Assembly: GCA_944350365.1 (NCBI GenBank)
Contig: CALVOU010000001.1
Location: 14,814-78,813 of the forward strand
Length of the DNA: 64,000 bases
Origin: an uncultured Bacilli bacterium
Lineage (GTDB): Bacteria > Bacillota_I > Bacilli_A > RF39 > UBA660
Reading direction: 5' to 3'
The notes below the pieces were generated by a model, which saw only the letters and a list, made by a program, of their open reading frames with translations, was not told the DNA's origin and searched no databases. Positions 20,214-55,279 of this stretch are shown in pieces. Numbering within the stretch: position 1 is the first letter of the stretch; each line of letters begins with the position of its first letter. The translations under genes and the position numbers were made by a program.

Positions 20214-20480
20214 TACTCAACACCACCTCATAAAAAAACGACTTTCTCGCCTATAAGGACGAAAAAATCGCGGTACCACCTTACTTTATGAATAAATATC
20301 CATACTCTCAACTTCTTAACGCGAATAACGGATAAACCTACCTATCGATCTATCAGTTCCAGAACCATCTATCATACTTCCTTTATATCCCATTTCACCA
20401 ACCGAGACTCTCTTCTCATAAAATCCATATGACTCTTTCTTTCAAAACTTTTATATCTAGAGATTATATCATAAAGATTT

Positions 20481-25735: not shown

Positions 25736-26305
25736 CTATTTCTTATTTTTCACATTATATTTAGACATTAACGAATCAAATGGTAAAACAAAGTAATCAT
25801 CTAAAACCAACATAACAGTATCAATCACGGATTCCAAAGTCTGATTATCTTCCTTTGATAATCGTCCTAAAACATAGTCTTTAGTATCTATAGATTTATC
25901 ATTAGAAATACCAATTTTAATTCGTTTGTATTCTTGCGTTTTTAAATGTAACTCAATATTTTTTAAACCATTATGACCAGCTGATGAACCTTTTTTCTTA
26001 ATTCGAAAATTCCCTAGTGGTAAATCTAAATCATCATGAATAATTAAAATATCGTCGATAGAAATATCAAAAAAATCCACGTAACGTCGAATAACTTCTC
26101 CACTTAAATTAATATAAGATTGAGGTTTCAGTAAAATTACTTTCTCCCCATGAATAAAACATTCACCATATAAACCAGAAAATTTCGATTTACTAACGGA
26201 ACAACCAACCTTTTTTGCGAAAGTATCTAAAGTCATAAATCCAACATTATGACGAGTATGTTCATACTCTTTACCAGGATTACCTAATCCAACAATTAGT
26301 TTCAT
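25736..26305 (-). CDS. pth: Peptidyl-tRNA hydrolase
   Basis: 189 aa with the N-terminal GLGNPG motif and a catalytic His (HNVGF). Confidence 0.9.
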   Translation of the reverse strand: MKLIVGLGNPGKEYEHTRHNVGFMTLDTFAKKVGCSVSKSKFSGLYGECFIHGEKVILLKPQSYINLSGEVIRRYVDFFDISIDDILIIHDDLDLPLGNFRIKKKGSSAGHNGLKNIELHLKTQEYKRIKIGISNDKSIDTKDYVLGRLSKEDNQTLESVIDTVMLVLDDYFVLPFDSLMSKYNVKNKK

Positions 26306-26354
26306 CTTGAATCACCCCTACCTACTTCTTTTTTCGTAAAAACAAGCAAAAATT

Positions 26355-26368
26355 ATTTCCCGGGAAAT
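26355..26368. promoter_or_regulatory. Isolated Noc-binding-site palindrome ATTTCCCGGGAAAT, about 50 bp upstream of the pth start
   Basis: A perfect 14-bp NBS consensus, extended to an 18-bp palindrome TTATTTCCCGGGAAATAA. It sits in the rsmI-pth intergenic region. Confidence 0.5.
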
Positions 26369-26385
26369 AATTTTCAAACATAAAT

Positions 26386-32921: not shown

Positions 32922-33368
32922 TTAAGAACGTTTTTCACGAAAAAAATCTTTTACTAAATTCGAAGTTTCTTCCTCTAGAATACCACCAATAAGTTCAACT
33001 GTATTTCCATACGACCGCGTCGAAAATATTTTTTCAACTAATTCAACATCATTTGTATTAGCAACTGTTCCATAAACGACTTTTGCTATTCTAGATTGGG
33101 CAATAGCACTAGCACACATTGGACATGGCATCATAGTTACATACAAAATACAATCAATTAACCGCCAATTTTCTAATTTTTCAGAAGCTTCCATAATACA
33201 ACCTATCTCAGCATGAAAAATTGCACAATTTTTTGAATCTTTCTGATTATGTGAAGAAGCGATCACTTGATTATTCTTAACTAAAACCGCTCCTACCGGA
33301 ACTTCACCATTTTGATAAGCTATTTTGGCTTCTTCTAAAGCTAAACCCATAAATTCTATATCATTCAT
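32922..33368 (-). CDS. tadA: tRNA-specific adenosine deaminase
   Basis: The CDA motifs HAEIGCI and PCPMCASA are present. The start is set at MNDIEFMG (33368) with a GGGAGAA RBS. The listed 175-aa ORF begins earlier at 33449, and that N-terminal extension overlaps the ffs RNA gene. Confidence 0.85.
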   Translation of the reverse strand: MNDIEFMGLALEEAKIAYQNGEVPVGAVLVKNNQVIASSHNQKDSKNCAIFHAEIGCIMEASEKLENWRLIDCILYVTMMPCPMCASAIAQSRIAKVVYGTVANTNDVELVEKIFSTRSYGNTVELIGGILEEETSNLVKDFFREKRS

Positions 33369-33384
33369 ATATATTCTCCCAAAA

Positions 33385-33465
33385 AAAAGTGCACATAAAT
33401 ATGAAATGTTAAGGCTGCTATCTTCCGATCCTGACCTGGTTCCACCCATATTTATTGCACATCAA
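33385..33465 (-). ncRNA. ffs: Signal recognition particle RNA (small 4.5S-type SRP RNA)
   Basis: The minus strand reads ...GGGUGGAACCAGGUCAGGAUCGGAAGAUAGCAGCC... This matches the universally conserved SRP RNA domain IV (ACCAGGUCAGG..GGAAG..AGCAGCC). Closing helix: GUGCAAUAAAUAUG pairs with CAUAUUUAUGUGCAC. A U-tract follows. Confidence 0.7.
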
Positions 33466-33479
33466 TATTCTAATATATT

Positions 33480-33532
33480 TTATCCACAATTTCAACAAAA
33501 ATGCAAAATTTTCTATTATTTTTTTATCCACA
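33480..33532 (+). promoter_or_regulatory. Two perfect DnaA boxes (TTATCCACA at 33480-33488 and 33524-33532) between ffs and the parS array
   Basis: Exact 9-mer consensus, same orientation. Further boxes lie at 34130-34138 (TTATCCACC, one mismatch) and 35275-35283 (perfect). Confidence 0.5.
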
Positions 33533-33543
33533 ATTAAATTTAA

Positions 33544-33559
33544 TGTTTCACGTGAAACA
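33544..33559. promoter_or_regulatory. parS site 1 (TGTTTCACGTGAAACA)
   Basis: Exact 16-bp parS consensus palindrome. Confidence 0.8.
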
Positions 33560-33662
33560 TCGAACAGAAATTTTATGCTAAAACACTACTTTTAAATGTT
33601 AAAAATAATAATATATTTGTCACTCTACATAAAATTACAACTAAAAGTTAATTAGCCGACAA

Positions 33663-33678
33663 TGTTTCACGTGAAACA
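33663..33678. promoter_or_regulatory. parS site 2, paired with NBS at 33692-33705
   Basis: Exact parS. It is followed by TGTGTATAA and then the perfect NBS ATTTCCCGGGAAAT. Confidence 0.8.
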
Positions 33679-33928
33679 TTGTGTATAAATTATTTCCCGG
33701 GAAATAATTTTTTATTCATTTCGACAAAATGGCAAGAATTAATATATATCAAAAAAAAATATCTTAGATCTTAGTATCGATTATATTCTTTAAATAACAA
33801 TACAATGGCTTTTCCCAAAAAAAAATAATAATTACCCGCTAAATAAACAATAACTATGTCTTAATGTACTCCCTTTCACAGAGAAACTTCAGAAAATTCA
33901 ATAGAGAAAGAGAGAACTAAAAAATCAA

Positions 33929-33944
33929 TGTTTCACGTGAAACA
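33929..33944. promoter_or_regulatory. parS site 3, paired with a variant NBS ATTTCCCAGGAAAT at 33958-33971
   Basis: Exact parS. The adjacent NBS has one mismatch. Confidence 0.75.
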
Positions 33945-34192
33945 TTGTGCATATTTTATTTCCCAGGAAATAATTTTTCGACTAATTTAACAAACAACAA
34001 TATAAAATCCTCATGCGTTAAATTAATTTAAAACTAAATACATGACTTTGGCACACATACAACCAAACATTTTTATAAAAAAGCATCGACAACTACTTAA
34101 TCAATCAATATCAAAGGAATTATCCACCGTATAAAATTATTAACGGGTACAATAAATAAACTTACACATATAATATAAAGTTAACAATTCAA

Positions 34193-34208
34193 TGTTCCAC
34201 GTGAAACA
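34193..34208. promoter_or_regulatory. parS site 4 (TGTTCCACGTGAAACA, the B. subtilis-type variant), with no adjacent NBS
   Basis: A 15/16 match to the palindrome. It is identical to the classic B. subtilis parS. Confidence 0.75.
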
Positions 34209-34362
34209 TTGAGGAAAAAACATTTCAAAAAAAGCAGCAAATATAGGCTAATAATATGATATTTCTTAAAAAAAATCATAATCCTATAAAACATACATCT
34301 ATAAATCGTTTAAATGACACTCTCGTTAAGAATTTTACAAATAAATAAAACTATTTGATGAA

Positions 34363-34378
34363 TGTTTCACGTGAAACA
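34363..34378. promoter_or_regulatory. parS site 5, paired with NBS at 34392-34405
   Basis: Exact parS plus a perfect NBS. This is the duplicate of the site 2 unit. Confidence 0.8.
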
Positions 34379-34609
34379 TTGTGTATAAATTATTTCCCGG
34401 GAAATAATTTTTTATTCGTTTCAACAAAATGGCAAGAATTACATCTTAGAACATAGTAACGATTATATTCCTTAAATAACATTATAATAGTTTTTCGCAA
34501 AAAAAATAATAATTACCTGCCAAATAAACAATAACTACATCTCAATGTACTCCCTTTCACAAAGAAATTTTAGAAAATTCAATAGAAAAAGAGAAAACTA
34601 ATAGATCAA

Positions 34610-34625
34610 TGTTTCACGTGAAACA
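34610..34625. promoter_or_regulatory. parS site 6, paired with NBS at 34638-34651
   Basis: Exact parS plus a perfect NBS. Confidence 0.8.
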
Positions 34626-34893
34626 TTGTGTATATTTATTTCCCGGGAAATAATTTTAAAGCATTTTATTTTTACTAATAATAACTTCCTTATCTGAGCA
34701 TAACTAAAAAACATATTACCGTTTTAAGAAAAAATATTTATTTACAACAAACACAATATAAATTTTTATTTGAAATTTCCTACAATAAAAATATTTTCTT
34801 AATATGATCTTATCTTCTATGCAAAAGCTAAATCCTACTGATAAAGCTTTCAAGATTATAATTTAATCTTCTATTAGAACTTTCACTATCTAA

Positions 34894-34909
34894 TGTTTCA
34901 CGTGAAACA
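34894..34909. promoter_or_regulatory. parS site 7, paired with NBS at 34923-34936
   Basis: Exact parS plus a perfect NBS. Confidence 0.8.
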
Positions 34910-35153
34910 TTGTGCATAAATTATTTCCCGGGAAATAATTTCCTAACTACTATAAGTACAAAAAATTTTAATAATAATTCATCACCATATCCAATATAGA
35001 CCAACTCAAATAAATTATAACGGATAATTTCAATTTAAAATAAATAAGAAAATTCTATAAATAAAATAATAGAACGAGCATTAATAATTAAAAATCCAAA
35101 ACTTCTAACAATAATAATCATAATCTATATTCTATATAAAGAATAATTAACAA

Positions 35154-35169
35154 TGTTTCACGTGAAACA
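35154..35169. promoter_or_regulatory. parS site 8, with no adjacent NBS
   Basis: Exact parS. Confidence 0.8.
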
Positions 35170-35333
35170 TTGTGTATAAAATATATATTTAAGAAATAAA
35201 TCTTTATTCATAATTTTAGATTCCTATAAAATCGATAAGTAATTACTATACTAAATACACAATGCTAATTTATTTTATCCACAAAGCGGTGGAATCAATA
35301 TGGCACAAAAAAACATAGACCTTAAAAGATCTA

Positions 35334-35349
35334 TGTTTCACGTGAAACA
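35334..35349. promoter_or_regulatory. parS site 9, lying 9 bp downstream of the gyrA stop
   Basis: Exact parS. It lies between the gyrA stop codon and the putative gyrA terminator hairpin at 35305-35332. Confidence 0.8.
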
Positions 35350-42673: not shown

Positions 42674-42814
42674 GTATATTCCTTCTTTCTTATATAATTA
42701 TTATTATTATTACTGTGGAAATTGTGGATAACTTGTTTTTTTCTATATTATATCATGTTTTTTTTATTTTTCCACCTGTGGATAATCATGTTGATAAAAA
42801 ATAGTTTTCAACAG
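42674..42814. promoter_or_regulatory. oriC segment in the dnaA-dnaN intergenic region (DnaA boxes plus AT-rich unwinding region)
   Basis: TGTGGATAA (the reverse complement of TTATCCACA) is perfect at 42724-42732 and 42777-42785. A variant lies at 42714-42722. Very AT-rich runs (TATATAATTATTATTATTATTAC, TTTTTTTTATTTTTCC) are present. Confidence 0.6.
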
Positions 42815-46577: not shown

Positions 46578-46651
46578 ACTAGTTTAGACTAGTTTTTTCA
46601 TTTGAAAAAATGTATGCAAAAATCATAAATTAGTTTTTAATAGCCCAAATT

Positions 46652-46665
46652 ATTACCTGGGAAAT
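46652..46665. promoter_or_regulatory. Degenerate NBS-like palindrome ATTACCTGGGAAAT upstream of mnmE
   Basis: A 12/14 match to ATTTCCCGGGAAAT in the jag-mnmE intergenic region. Confidence 0.25.
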
Positions 46666-46765
46666 AATTTCTATCTCAAAATTAGGAATTTTAATTAGGA
46701 AATAAGGGGTAAAATTTCTGTGATATAATAGATACACAAGAAACGAAAGAAAAGAGGAGTAGAAT

Positions 46766-48121: not shown

Positions 48122-48181
48122 AAATATTCATAGCAAAAATTGATTTCATATAACATTTTTTCTTATTTAAACGCAGAAATT

Positions 48182-48195
48182 ATTTCCCGGGAAAT
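48182..48195. promoter_or_regulatory. Isolated perfect NBS palindrome ATTTCCCGGGAAAT in the mnmG promoter region
   Basis: It lies about 30-45 bp upstream of TATAAT-like elements (48213-48230) that precede mnmG. Confidence 0.5.
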
Positions 48196-48250
48196 AATTT
48201 TCTTCTTTCTATAATAAAAATATAGTATAATATGAAACGGTAAAAAGGAA

Positions 48251-50820: not shown

Positions 50821-52260
50821 ATGTTAAAGTATTATAAAAATGTCGTAAAATACAATGAAGATGTTTGTTATGGCGTTGGAATCATAACCGGTTGGAAATC
50901 TACCGATATGATTTTGGATAGTTTAAGTGAAGAAGTAAAGCGCAAAATAGTAACTTGTGGGAACTTATATACAAAAAACGGAATCAATTATATTATTGCC
51001 AATTTATTTTTAAATCCCCAGATTACAGAATTAATCGTTTTAGAAGATTCTTCTTTACAAAATGAAATGGCGGAAGGAATAACTGCTCTTTTAGAATTCT
51101 TAACCACTAACGAATTAACATTTGAATCAAAATTTCAATTCACTGAAGAAAATTTAACGCAATTTACGAAATATTTTAAAGATCATATTAGAGTAGTAAA
51201 AAGGCAAGATCTAGAGCAACAACTTAAACAAATTGATATTCCAGAAAAAGATTGGTGTAAAATTACCGAAATAAAAGAAAATCCATTAGAACTCCAGCAT
51301 CAGATTCCAAGTGAAAAGGTAGGCTTTACGGTAAGAGCCAATACCGCTTATGAAGCATGGAATCGAGCGTTAAAATTAATCCATACTTATGGCTATTTAA
51401 AACCATCTGATTATGATGAGAATCAATTAGAATTAATCAACTTATCGATTATTGTTAGAAACGAGGATTTAGCTAACCCCAGTATGGCCGGAGTAATTGA
51501 TATCACTCGGGAAGAATTAGAAGAATATGAGAAAAATATTCTTTCTAAAGAAAGACCAGACGGAGTAAAGTATACATATGGAAGTCGTTATCGAGATCAA
51601 AATGGGAAAGACCAATTTCAATATATGGTAGATACCTTAAAAGATAAGCCATTTTCTAGAAGGGCGGTTGCTACTCTTTGGGTTCCTACTATCGACATCG
51701 AGGAAGACGAAGTTCCCTGCCTTGACTTATATCAAGCGATTATTGAAGGAGAATATCTCCATCTTCTTACTTATATTCGAGCAAACGATGTCTATAATGG
51801 TTGGCCGAGAAATATCTATGGCATTTTAAAAATTCAAGAAGAATTATGCCAACGTCTTGGCTATCAAAAAGGATACGTAAATACCATTGCCGGAAGTGCT
51901 CATGTTTATGGGAGAAATTTTGATGATTTAGAAAAAAAATTCAATGAGAAAGAGGTATCCTTTTGTGACGAAGACGAAAGAGGATATTTTACGGTAACGA
52001 TAGAAAACAACCTAATTCAAGTTACTTTCTATAGTATAACAGGACAAGAACTCCGCAGATTTACAGGCACGAGTGCTACAGAATTAAGAAATAAATGTAC
52101 TCTTTATATAAGTAACATCGATCATGCTTTCTATTTAGGACAAGAGTTAATGAAAGCTGAGTTGGCACTTAAAAATCAACTATTCTATGTACAAGATCAA
52201 TCATTAGATTTAAAATCAAAACAGAAAACATTAAGTAATCCACTAAAATTTAATGATTAA
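50821..52260 (+). CDS. Thymidylate-synthase-fold protein with a roughly 160-aa N-terminal extension
   Basis: Residues from about 165 to 430 align with the ThyA core. The Cys-loop is PCLDLYQ (PCH in canonical ThyA). IRANDVYNGWPRNIYG matches QRSCDVFLGLPFNIAS, with Arg, Asp and Asn conserved. GSAHVYG matches GDTHLY. Confidence 0.55.
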   Translation: MLKYYKNVVKYNEDVCYGVGIITGWKSTDMILDSLSEEVKRKIVTCGNLYTKNGINYIIANLFLNPQITELIVLEDSSLQNEMAEGITALLEFLTTNELTFESKFQFTEENLTQFTKYFKDHIRVVKRQDLEQQLKQIDIPEKDWCKITEIKENPLELQHQIPSEKVGFTVRANTAYEAWNRALKLIHTYGYLKPSDYDENQLELINLSIIVRNEDLANPSMAGVIDITREELEEYEKNILSKERPDGVKYTYGSRYRDQNGKDQFQYMVDTLKDKPFSRRAVATLWVPTIDIEEDEVPCLDLYQAIIEGEYLHLLTYIRANDVYNGWPRNIYGILKIQEELCQRLGYQKGYVNTIAGSAHVYGRNFDDLEKKFNEKEVSFCDEDERGYFTVTIENNLIQVTFYSITGQELRRFTGTSATELRNKCTLYISNIDHAFYLGQELMKAELALKNQLFYVQDQSLDLKSKQKTLSNPLKFND

Positions 52261-52368
52261 ATTACCTAGTAGTCAAAGGAAAATTTGCCTTTATTCTTGT
52301 TTAGTTAAAAAAATATGGTATAATGAATATGATGAAGAATAATACAAGAATGAAAAGAGGGTTAATTT

Positions 52369-53502
52369 ATGGATAGAGAAGTAGTGGATTTATATTTGGA
52401 TGACATTATCCCTAACCGTTTTCAACCACGTGAAGTATTTAATGAACAAGCTTTGCGAGAATTAGCTGACTCTATTAGAGCACATGGAGTAATACAGCCA
52501 ATTATCGTTAGAAAAATAGGAGATAAATACGAAATTATTGCCGGAGAAAGAAGATATAAAGCATCTGCGATGGCTGGTCTAACTAAAATTCCGGCAATTA
52601 TTAGAAATTTAGATGATAAAGAGACTTCAAAGGTGGCACTACTCGAAAACTTACAAAGAAAGGATTTAACACCGATCGAAGAAGCTAGAACGTATCAAAA
52701 AATACTAGAACTTGATTCGATGACACAAGAAGAGCTCGGACGTACTATGGGAAAATCCCAAGCGGCAATTGCCAATAAGATGCGTTTATTATCTTTACCT
52801 GATGAAGTTCAAGAAGCACTACTTCATGATCAAATATCAGAAAGACATGCTAGGAGTTTATTGAATCTAGATTCAAGAGAAGATCAAATAAATATGCTTC
52901 ATGCTATCATTGAAAAAAGAATGACGGTTAGAGAATTAGATAATGAAATTAGAAAATTAAAAGGCATTGAAGAACCAACTTCAAGCGAGGGTAATTTAGA
53001 AAGTACTGATCAAGGAGGAACTTCCATTTCCACTACTCCAGAACCAATTGAGATTCCAAGTCCAGTTACTCCTTCTAATCCAATGACAAGTACTAATCCT
53101 AATATTTCACGACCTCCGATAGATTTACTTGCTTCATCTAATCAAACAAGTTCTAAAGTAGAAGTATCTTCACCAAATTCAACTGTAGTTAGCACTCCTA
53201 AACCAGTTGTTAGAAATATTCTTACTCTATCAGATGACGATGAAGAAGATTTTACTCAGTTAACTCCAGAGCAAGTTTCATCAACTCTAGCTAATACTGA
53301 AGAGGGAGAACCCGAGGTAAAATACAATGATCCAGTCGAAGAATTATTAGATGATGAAGAATTATACTCATTGAAAGATGCCGTAAAAGAGTTAAGAAGA
53401 ACGGTAACTAATCTCGAAAATAGGGGCTTTGTTATTAAAGTCGAAGAATTAGATTTCGAAAATACTTACCAAGTAGTAGTAAAAATCAATAAAGATATTT
53501 AA
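52369..53502 (+). CDS. noc: Noc-like ParB paralog (nucleoid occlusion protein-like)
   Basis: It has the ParB N-domain (IQPIIVRK...IAGERRYKA) and the Noc-type recognition helix GKSQAAIANKMRLL (Noc GKGQSTIANKLRLL). A 120-aa Ser/Thr/Pro-rich linker precedes the C-terminal domain. There is no N-terminal amphipathic helix. Confidence 0.65.
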   Translation: MDREVVDLYLDDIIPNRFQPREVFNEQALRELADSIRAHGVIQPIIVRKIGDKYEIIAGERRYKASAMAGLTKIPAIIRNLDDKETSKVALLENLQRKDLTPIEEARTYQKILELDSMTQEELGRTMGKSQAAIANKMRLLSLPDEVQEALLHDQISERHARSLLNLDSREDQINMLHAIIEKRMTVRELDNEIRKLKGIEEPTSSEGNLESTDQGGTSISTTPEPIEIPSPVTPSNPMTSTNPNISRPPIDLLASSNQTSSKVEVSSPNSTVVSTPKPVVRNILTLSDDDEEDFTQLTPEQVSSTLANTEEGEPEVKYNDPVEELLDDEELYSLKDAVKELRRTVTNLENRGFVIKVEELDFENTYQVVVKINKDI

Positions 53503-53598
53503 AAGTAGAGAGTTCTACTTTTTTTTAACAAGAGGTTTCCTAATTTAACGTTTTCTGTTAAAATAGAATAGTATAAAAACAAAAAAGGTGGTAAGAGC

Positions 53599-54402
53599 AT
53601 GGGAAAGATAATATCATTAGTAAATCAAAAAGGTGGAGTAGGAAAAACGACAACGAGTATCAATCTTTCTGCATCTTTAGCTTACTTAGGAAAAAGAGTA
53701 TTATTAATTGATTTAGATCCCCAAGGAAATGCGACAACAGGTGTCGGAATTAATAAAGGAGATATCAGTAAAAGTGTTCACGATGTAATAACAGAGAAAT
53801 GTAATGTAATAGAGGCAATTATTAAAACAAAATATAAAAATCTTTATCTTTTGCCAGCAACAATTAATTTAGCAGGTATCGATATTGAACTTATGGAAAA
53901 GAGCAAGACAGATCAAAATTTCTCCAAAAACATTCAATTAAAGAAAGCGTTGGATCCGATTAGAGATTCTTTTGACTACATCATCATTGACTGTCCACCT
54001 TCTTTAGGGTTAATTACAACCAACGCATTAACAGCATCTAATTCTGTAATCATTCCTGTTCAATGTGAATTCTTCGCCCTCGAGGGAATTACTCAACTTC
54101 TTAATACAATTATGTTAGCGCAAAAAAATTTAAATCCTAATCTAGATATTGAGGGCGTTCTGCTGACCATGCTTGATTCACGAGCAATTCTTTGTCTAGA
54201 AGTGGTAGAAGATATTAGAAGATTTTTCAAAGAACGGGTATATAATACAATTATCCCAAGACTCGTTAGAATCGCGGAAGCTCCATCACATGGCACACCG
54301 ATCATCGCCTATGATTCCAAACATCGTGGATCGATTGCTTATTTAAATTTAGCAAAGGAAGTGATTGAAAGAAATGGAAACGCAAACACAAGCACAAAGT
54401 AG
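53599..54402 (+). CDS. soj: ParA-type chromosome partitioning ATPase Soj
   Basis: 267 aa with a deviant Walker A (KGGVGKTTT). Confidence 0.9.
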   Translation: MGKIISLVNQKGGVGKTTTSINLSASLAYLGKRVLLIDLDPQGNATTGVGINKGDISKSVHDVITEKCNVIEAIIKTKYKNLYLLPATINLAGIDIELMEKSKTDQNFSKNIQLKKALDPIRDSFDYIIIDCPPSLGLITTNALTASNSVIIPVQCEFFALEGITQLLNTIMLAQKNLNPNLDIEGVLLTMLDSRAILCLEVVEDIRRFFKERVYNTIIPRLVRIAEAPSHGTPIIAYDSKHRGSIAYLNLAKEVIERNGNANTSTK

Positions 54403-55279
54403 AAGAAAAGCTCTAGGAAGAGGCTTAGAAGAATTATTTAATAATGAACCAATGAACTATGAAACGATAGAAGAAAAAATTATTACGTCAACTCCAAAAG
54501 AAGAAATTGTAGAATTAAATTTATCTGAGTTACGTAGTAATCCTTATCAGCCACGGAAAAATTTTGACGAAAAGGCACTTCAAGAATTGGCTAATTCTAT
54601 TAAAGAATATGGGGTTTTTCAACCAATTATTGCCAAAAAAAGCATCAAAGGTTACGAGATTATCGCTGGAGAAAGAAGAGTAAAAGCATCTATTTTAGCC
54701 GGAAGAGAAACCATACCAGCTATTCTTCGTGACTTCAGTGATCAGGAAATGATGGAGATTGCGCTTTTAGAAAATCTTCAACGGGAAAATTTAAATGCCT
54801 TAGAAGAAGCCCTTGCTTATAAAAAATTGATAGAAGAGTTATCTTTAACGCAAGAAGCATTAGCTGAAAGAATTGGGAAAAGCCGGAGTCATATTACCAA
54901 TATGTTAGGTCTTTTGACTTTACCAGAAGAAGTCAAAGATTTAATCATGGAAAATAAATTGACAATGGGCCATGCTCGAGCACTAAGTAAATTAGAAAAT
55001 CCGAATAAAATCAAAGATCTTGCTCAAAAAGTTGTGATGGAAAATTTAAGTGTTCGTCAAGTAGAAAATTTAGCTTTTGAACCAACTGCTGAAAAAAAAC
55101 ATAAGACTAAGAAAGCACCCAATTCCCTAGAATATCGAAATATAGAAGAAAACTTATCTGAAAAATTAGGAACTAAAGTAAAAATTAATCATAATAAACT
55201 AGAAATTTCTTTCGTCAATCGTAATGATCTAAACCGTCTATTAGAAATAATAGGCATCGAACAAGAAAATGACATCTGA
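54365..55279 (+). CDS. spo0J: Chromosome partitioning protein Spo0J/ParB
   Basis: It has the N-terminal Soj-interacting peptide (KALGRGLEELF) and a ParB box (IIAGERRVKAS). The recognition helix GKSRSHITNMLGLL is Spo0J-type (GKSRSHVTN). Confidence 0.85.
   Translation: MKEMETQTQAQSRRKALGRGLEELFNNEPMNYETIEEKIITSTPKEEIVELNLSELRSNPYQPRKNFDEKALQELANSIKEYGVFQPIIAKKSIKGYEIIAGERRVKASILAGRETIPAILRDFSDQEMMEIALLENLQRENLNALEEALAYKKLIEELSLTQEALAERIGKSRSHITNMLGLLTLPEEVKDLIMENKLTMGHARALSKLENPNKIKDLAQKVVMENLSVRQVENLAFEPTAEKKHKTKKAPNSLEYRNIEENLSEKLGTKVKINHNKLEISFVNRNDLNRLLEIIGIEQENDI

Follow-up and report, generated by a model that had tools for sequence, protein, structure and literature searches.

A stretch of 64,000 nucleotides from an uncultured Bacilli bacterium (RF39, UBA660; contig CALVOU010000001.1, positions 14,814 to 78,813), hereafter the window, covers the replication-origin region of a Bacillota genome of low guanine-plus-cytosine content. 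It carries a noc-like gene whose product has three of the four DNA-specificity residues and the nucleotide-binding motifs of Noc and lacks the N-terminal membrane anchor of that protein. We propose, with a probability of roughly 0.55, that this product acts as a cytidine triphosphate (CTP)-dependent clamp of the Noc lineage, which would load at Noc-binding sites (NBS) and co-assemble with ParB around the origin without binding the membrane directly. The protein apparently represents an undescribed subfamily, which has nothing of Noc's N-terminal extension, neither helix alpha1, which targets the membrane, nor the autoinhibitory helix alpha2, and which has a long, fast-evolving acidic spacer. 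Since the membrane anchor is a defining feature of Noc and is absent here, we filed the protein as a Noc-derived subfamily and not as Noc in the strict sense. Its domains, CTP motifs and specificity residues, the absence of the anchor, the disorder and charge of the linker, the presence, placement and conservation of the NBS and their conserved pairing with parS sites are shown by the analysis. The gene and the parts of its product are as follows.

52369..53502, + strand: noc-like gene, 377 aa plus stop codon, ATG start (open reading frame (ORF) listing, TIGR04285 score, Protein Data Bank (PDB) matches)

52356..52368, + strand: ribosome-binding site AGAGGG (52356-52361, 8 nt 5' of the ATG) and in-frame TAA (52363-52365) (sequence, upstream translation)

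52369..52656, + strand: ParB N-terminal CTP-binding domain, residues 1-96, beginning at the core without Noc helices alpha1 and alpha2 (PF02195)

52657..52962, + strand: helix-turn-helix (HTH) DNA-binding domain, residues 97-198 (PF17762; AlphaFold2 predicted local distance difference test (pLDDT) 81-95)

52759-52761, 52777-52779, 52792-52794 and 52843-52845, + strand: specificity residues Q131, K137, S142 and R159, respectively (alignment to the code of Jalal et al. 2020)

52963..53370, + strand: disordered linker, residues 199-334, S/T/P/N-rich at 199-290 and acidic at 291-334 (composition, charge, AlphaFold2)

53371..53499, + strand: C-terminal domain, residues 335-377, probably of the Noc type and presumably a dimerisation domain, helix plus beta-hairpin (AlphaFold2, TIGR04285)

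Profile and structure matches place the protein in the Noc lineage. The NCBIfam Noc profile TIGR04285 gave it 287 bits, as against 236 bits for the Spo0J paralog encoded downstream, and a construct from which the linker was deleted aligned with this profile end to end (positions 1-255 of 255) at 295 bits. Its PDB matches were led by Geobacillus thermoleovorans Noc (7ng0 and 7nfu, 218 bits each), followed by Bacillus subtilis Noc (190 bits) and the best ParB (186 bits). The order was reversed for the paralog, which matched B. subtilis Spo0J (6sdk) at 224 bits and the Noc entries at 156-160 bits. The two proteins are 44% identical over the core. Pfam PF02195 (ParB_N) covers residues 5-96 of the noc-like protein (E = 2e-34), and residues Q19, R21, G59-E60-R61-R62, E93, N94 and R97, which belong to the QPR, GERR and ENLQR motifs, are kept in 150-151 of 151 family representatives. 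R62 and N94 are the equivalents of R89 and N121, both of which are required for CTP binding by B. subtilis Noc (PMC8429893).

The DNA-specificity residues point the same way. In the code established by Jalal et al. (2020, PMC7383237), the four positions are Q173, K179, K184 and R201 in Noc and R, T, A and G in ParB; adenine 1 is read by Q173 and cytosine 6 by R201, and one permissive lysine, at 179 or 184, suffices. The initial annotation had recognized a Noc-type helix, GKSQAAIANKMRLL, in the noc-like protein. This helix is present, and on alignment three of the four specificity positions are of the Noc type (Q131 for Q173, K137 for K179 and R159 for R201), with S142 at position 184. Among the 151 representatives, the glutamine occurs in 151, the lysine at position 179 in 149 and the arginine in 150; none has K at position 184, where N, S, T or A is found. 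The helix ascribed to Spo0J, GKSRSHITNMLGLL, is likewise present in the paralog and of the ParB type, in a protein with R and G at positions 173 and 201, the LGRGLEELF peptide and B. subtilis Spo0J as its best PDB match. The ParA-activating peptide LG[KR]G[LIF] is absent from the noc-like protein and present in the Spo0J paralog as ALGRGLEELF. The protein is thus Noc-derived by lineage, and NBS binding and CTP clamping are predicted for it by homology. The gene order rsmG (gidB), noc-like, soj, spo0J also confirms the noc position upstream of soj-spo0J that had been described before; one extra gene, a thymidylate-synthase-like one, is inserted in this synteny in the present species and its closest relatives. 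The two downstream genes are as follows.

53599..54402, + strand: soj (parA) (ORF listing, profile match)

54365..55279, + strand: spo0J, encoding a canonical ParB with N-terminal LGRGLEELF, helix GKSRSHITNMLGLL and a ParB C-terminal domain (ORF listing, profiles, PDB match)

The longest spo0J ORF has a TTG start and overlaps the end of soj by 38 nt (54365-54402); an alternative ATG lies three codons downstream (MKEM...).

The anchor is missing from the sequence itself. The counterpart of query residues 3-4 is residue 28 in B. subtilis Noc (7ol9) and residue 27 in G. thermoleovorans Noc (7nfu), so that about 24-25 N-terminal residues are missing, and with them helix alpha1, which targets the membrane, and the conserved alpha2. 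Canonical Noc proteins start with MKHSFSRFFG in B. subtilis (MKHSFSRFFGLGEKEQ) and MKHPFSRLFS in G. thermoleovorans (MKHPFSRLFSFGEKEQ); the first 11 residues of the query are acidic, with a net charge of -3. The TAA lies in frame two codons 5' of the ATG, which leaves no in-frame start further upstream and rules out an N-terminal extension. Translation of the 108 bp upstream in three frames gave nothing like an amphipathic peptide, and the whole 64-kb window contains neither a Noc-like peptide of the M[KR]x[STP]Fx[KR] type nor a third ParB-family gene. As the upstream frames and the whole-window search were empty, an upstream start, a frameshift and a separate anchor peptide were rejected. None of 70 related genome loci has an upstream in-frame start, with just 7-37 codons open 5' of the LYLDDIIPN motif, and the best 150 representatives (50%-identity clusters) all start 0-16 residues ahead of the aligned core. 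Because the upstream stop and the short N-terminus recur across loci and representatives, the start is not mis-called, and the earlier observation that the protein begins directly with the ParB N-domain, without a membrane-targeting helix, stands.

In a hydrophobic-moment scan of the protein, high-moment windows were confined to the folded helices of the DNA-binding and C-terminal domains, apart from a single candidate in the linker. This possible cryptic amphipathic helix, KPVVRNILTLS at residues 278-288, was rejected, as it is not conserved and abuts DDDEEDF. Nor is an amphipathic helix present at the C-terminus, as the wider family has no more than eight residues after the C-terminal domain. 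Adams et al. (2015) reported a predicted amphipathic helix at the N terminus of every Noc homologue they examined (PMC4331003), and the truncated B. subtilis protein NocNdelta10 keeps CTP binding, NBS binding and clamping while losing liposome binding and nucleoid occlusion (PMC4331003, PMC8429893). By analogy with these engineered truncations, the noc-like protein would not bind the membrane.

Where canonical Noc has an 18-aa basic linker (QRKPKPRRKAFSRD, net charge +4 to +5), the noc-like protein has a long disordered one. The initial annotation was right in placing an S/T/P/N-rich linker before a C-terminal domain, but its limits (residues 195-320) were short at the C-terminal end, and the linker now comprises residues 199-334. 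S, T, P and N make up 54% of residues 199-290, as against 15% of residues 1-198, and residues 291-335 have a net charge of -15. AlphaFold2 predicted no secondary structure between residues 199 and 334, with pLDDT below 50 at 206-223, 244-247 and 252-320 and means of 35-54 over blocks of 10 residues from 201 to 330. Mean identity to the query among 74 relatives is 90% for residues 1-198 (range 84-100%), 16% for the linker and 59% for the C-terminal domain. The net charge of the linker varies from -8 to -24 among the 75 aligned sequences (query included), and in the wider family the linker spans 75-536 aa and is net negative in every member. The linker sequence therefore diverges while its length, disorder and negative charge persist, and it is these three properties, and not the sequence, that are conserved. 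About one third of the more distant family members (P0125-P0191) carry ordered short motifs in the linker, namely FINYGE, D[IL]xx[IL][KR]xx[ST]xDI, [IL]AD[LM]DSLL and F[KR]F[IVF]. Shuffled linkers contain such motifs far less often, and they could be partner-binding sites; FINYGE and the other three are absent from the noc-like protein and its 117 closest relatives.

The C-terminal domain consists of a helix (335-351) and a hairpin (356-373), predicted by AlphaFold2 with pLDDT 80-91, and the motif ..EE(M/L)DFE..YQ..IKI.K is kept in the family. Taken alone, this domain matches TIGR04285 positions 215-255 weakly (13.9 bits, E = 0.025).

The genome contains the sites that such a protein would read. 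We found eight NBS-like sites in the window at up to three mismatches (0.5 expected), of which six are perfect B. subtilis-type 16-mers and two are near-matches; all eight are intergenic. The main features, none of them assigned to a strand, are as follows.

48181..48196: perfect NBS TATTTCCCGGGAAATA, intergenic, 55 bp upstream of mnmG

46651..46666: NBS-like site with two mismatches, intergenic, between jag and mnmE; perfect at this place in the close relatives L001-L004 and several others

26354..26369: perfect NBS, intergenic

33544..35349: non-coding parS/NBS array of about 1.9 kb with nine parS (eight perfect), between the signal recognition particle (SRP) RNA/tadA and gyrA, about 9 kb from oriC

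The reported concentration of NBS in the parS array was borne out, since five of the eight sites lie there (33691, 33957, 34391, 34637 and 34922), each 11-12 bp from a parS. Among 80 related loci, 42 have one or more perfect NBS 16-mers, and with few exceptions these occupy the syntenic places upstream of mnmG or of mnmE. We searched metagenome contigs for a parS followed, after a gap of 6-20 bp, by an NBS. The composite occurs in at least 120 contigs, many of which carry 3-9 pairs; of the 120 contigs listed, 116 show it in the gyrA-tadA-dnaX context, with GyrA identity of 47-99%, and the gap lengths peak at 9-13 bp and 19-21 bp. Contig overlaps at 95-99% nucleotide identity link the array to genomes encoding an anchor-less Noc, those of UMGS484 (57% identical to the query) and Clostridium sp. 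CAG:710 (49%). The array and the anchor-less Noc thus co-occur in three divergent species, which indicates that the protein accompanies the pairing across a deep clade.

Perfect DnaA boxes (TTATCCACA) flank the array at 33480-33488, 33524-33532 and 35275-35283, and others lie at 42723, 42777, 44308 and 44351, the window containing nine in total (0.73 expected). The parS/NBS array may double as a DnaA-box cluster.

The anchor-less form is widely distributed. A genome scan found at least 496 confirmed loci among species-representative genomes, and the hosts of the loci listed are almost all metagenome-assembled genomes (MAGs) of uncultured gut "Bacilli" or "Tenericutes", Clostridium sp. CAG:710 and Ca. 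Faecenecus among them. The short N-terminus and an acidic linker of 75-536 aa are common to the best 150 cluster representatives and to about 500 listed loci. Judging from these sequences, a large group of uncultured bacteria of the gut typically has the short form, which is not a local oddity. This refines the initial annotation: the trait belongs to a very large subfamily, and its linker is strongly acidic where the canonical Noc linker is basic. One 221-aa fragment, P0215, joins a ParB-type N-terminus with the ParA-binding motif (RRALGRGLEELF) to a core that is 75% identical to the query and has Q, K and R as in Noc; either a chimeric assembly or a genuine intermediate could account for it. 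Neither an anchor-less Noc nor a pairing of parS with NBS was found described in the full-text literature searched, which does not cover all journals.

Comparison with characterized systems sets the subfamily apart. With the Noc proteins of B. subtilis, G. thermoleovorans and Staphylococcus aureus (TIGR04285; 7ol9, 7nfu, 7ng0, 6y93), the query shares the ParB-type CTP-binding N-domain, an HTH with the equivalents of Q173, K179 and R201, a C-terminal domain that is probably Noc-like, the rsmG/soj-spo0J position and the identical 16-bp NBS, TATTTCCCGGGAAATA, in its genome. It differs from them in lacking about 25 N-terminal residues, in S, N, T or A in place of K at position 184 of its family, in the acidic disordered spacer that replaces the short basic linker, and in a profile score below the curated threshold. 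In the visible region, its NBS are moreover intergenic, flank oriC and pair with parS. The query is the natural equivalent of an N-terminal deletion of about 25 residues and thus comparable to the engineered truncations NocNdelta10 and NocNdelta26 (Adams 2015, PMC4331003; Jalal 2021, PMC8429893), and residue 4 of the Ndelta26 crystal construct 7ng0 aligns with its residue 5. Those laboratory forms lose nucleoid occlusion, whereas the query form is strongly constrained in hundreds of species and carries the linker in addition.

With chromosomal ParB/Spo0J, the protein has in common the fold, the CTP motifs, an adjoining gene and loading sites placed beside parS, but it lacks LG(K/R)GL, has Q and R where ParB has R and G, and ends in a C-terminal domain, probably of the Noc type, that Pfam ParB_C does not match. 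RicO of S. aureus (bioRxiv 10.64898/2026.03.06.710092) is also a site-specific DNA binder with origin-concentrated sites and contributes to origin organization; it belongs to an unrelated family, and its C-terminal amphipathic helix, of a kind that the query lacks, anchors origins to the membrane. KorB of RK2 offers a precedent for the re-use of a ParB-family CTP clamp beyond ParA-driven partition, in long-range silencing, although it is plasmid-borne and acts with a partner, KorA. The query is not specifically related to KorB (53 bits against 8qa8; a sub-threshold 17 bits for Pfam KorB).

From these features we infer co-assembly with ParB and a contribution of the linker. Dimers of the noc-like protein would nucleate at the NBS that flank oriC and at those alternating with parS in the gyrA-tadA array, bind CTP, close into clamps and slide to neighbouring DNA. 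ParB would load likewise from the adjacent parS, so that the origin-proximal centromere would become coated by a mixture of ParB and Noc-like clamps. The known route to the membrane would be closed to the latter, and without an LG(K/R)GL peptide they should not be able to activate Soj. The acidic disordered spacer might contribute either by forming a bulky, charged brush or by binding partners as a module, and its action would tune the compaction, spreading or positioning of the origin/partition complex. The initial annotation had suggested, as one candidate, a role in the partition complex and had considered classical tethering less likely. Both ideas fit the conserved parS-NBS pairing and the membrane-blind truncations (PMC4331003, PMC8429893), and they are kept here as inference. 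More tentatively still, and with the odds somewhat against it, the arrays by gyrA may amount to a two-clamp centromere of a large lineage of uncultured gut Bacilli, in which parS and NBS load ParB and the anchor-less Noc side by side for chromosome organization or segregation and not for tethered occlusion.

Several points weigh against an origin-bound clamp that acts without the membrane. The score of the protein lies under the curated NCBI cut-off for Noc of 315 bits, both for the whole sequence (287) and without the linker (295); the profile begins at the core, its position 1 corresponding to query residue 4, so this shortfall stems from divergence and not from the missing anchor. With a residue other than lysine at position 184, affinity or specificity may differ from those of B. 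subtilis Noc. The AlphaFold2 model is weak for the N-domain (pLDDT 33-59) and allows no inference on clamp closure. Among the contigs listed, the side of parS on which the NBS lies relative to gyrA/oriC varies (149 vs 86); a directional rule for their order was rejected, and an order that is not fixed does not suit a simple directional roadblock model. Beyond the visible 64 kb, NBS may be dispersed over the whole genome in the manner of B. subtilis, which would favour classical occlusion. A partner protein might also supply a link to the membrane.

In one alternative, an unlikely one, the protein would still be a nucleoid-occlusion factor, tethered by a partner that binds the linker or the C-terminal domain, or by a cryptic membrane segment in the linker. 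That the NBS code is retained along with the CTP motifs and the noc synteny agrees with this, as do the partner-site-like conserved motifs in about one third of the wider-family linkers and the finding that S. aureus Noc works mainly over the origin-proximal region (PMC5540599). Those motifs are, however, absent from the noc-like protein and its 117 closest relatives, and no conserved candidate partner gene adjoins the noc-like gene. The only moderately amphipathic positive stretch of the linker, KPVVRNILTLS, is unconserved and runs into acidic residues, and the net negative charge of the linker in all members makes binding to anionic membranes less likely. A mainly regulatory role appears quite improbable as the principal function, and is compatible with the clamp that we propose; the protein would then control replication initiation as S. 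aureus Noc does, or silence the promoters flanking oriC in the manner of KorB. Isolated NBS are found on either side of oriC, all of them 50-100 bp upstream of the start of a gene (mnmE, mnmG or the ORF that begins at 26305), perfect DnaA boxes flank the array (33480, 33524, 35275; nine in the window vs 0.73 expected), and Noc restrains DnaA-dependent initiation in S. aureus (PMC5540599). In a compact genome, however, any intergenic site is near a promoter, and the tight 1:1 pairing with parS at about 1-2 helical turns points to ParB and not to DnaA or RNA polymerase.

It is very improbable, and largely excluded by the data, that the gene simply encodes a second ParB that binds parS, that its short N-terminus is an artefact of annotation or assembly, or that it is decaying. 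Close relatives are annotated publicly as 'ParB/RepB/Spo0J family partition protein', and the cut-off of the Noc profile is not reached. Yet Q131 and R159 are the residues that switch recognition to NBS, in place of the R and G of ParB, and the ParA-binding peptide is absent. The upstream stop and the short N-terminus recur in independent assemblies of about 500 listed loci, and identity of 84-100% over residues 1-198 across relatives indicates strong constraint. An NBS-loading clamp of the Noc lineage without a membrane anchor is the most economical reading.

The gene order of the window runs recR, ybaB, dnaX, tadA, SRP RNA, the 1.9-kb non-coding array, gyrA, gyrB, recF, dnaN and dnaA, followed by rnpA, yidC, jag, mnmE, mnmG, rsmG, the thymidylate-synthase-like gene, the noc-like gene, soj and spo0J. 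Gene orientation changes at dnaA, and perfect DnaA boxes are found on both sides of it. The gene inserted between rsmG and the noc-like gene (50821-52260, + strand) encodes a 479-aa protein with a thymidylate-synthase-like domain and a C-terminal DUF4346 pterin-binding domain, with weak MtrA-like matches; judged from the NBS-to-noc spacing, this insertion is limited to the closest relatives (L001-L004). A protein identical to the noc-like one is on record in NCBI and ENA assemblies, and a 94%-identical protein, annotated only as ParB/RepB/Spo0J family, is encoded by the chicken-gut MAG "Candidatus Scybalousia intestinigallinarum" (Bacilli incertae sedis). In a scan of positions 52200-53650, promoter-like matches did not exceed the shuffled expectation and no terminator passed the filter; by eye only, a promoter-like TTGTTT...TGGTATAAT and a T-run preceded by a weak AGTAGA/TCTACT hairpin can be seen in this region. 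The SRP RNA gene (33380-33466, - strand) overlaps the first 70 nt of the longest ORF of the deaminase gene tadA (32922..33449, - strand), and the tadA Pfam match begins at residue 28, which suggests that the real tadA start is probably downstream of that of the longest ORF. A T-box leader was also detected at 20252-20454 (- strand; 98 bits, over the gathering score).

The membrane-targeting helix has been regarded as the essence of Noc action, and here a natural, conserved family without the anchor keeps the NBS code and the CTP switch. Noc may thus do a different job in the anchor-less group, which would represent a second, unexplored mode of action of the Noc clamp. The family provides a natural system for the function of this clamp without the membrane, a route to studying the joint use of one DNA stretch by two ParB-family clamps, and a test case for the effect of a long acidic disordered spacer on clamp behaviour. 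For annotation, it matters that anchor-less Noc proteins are now labelled as generic ParB. The finding also bears on the evolution of noc from parB: should the short form be ancestral, Noc would have acquired its membrane binding later, in Bacillales.

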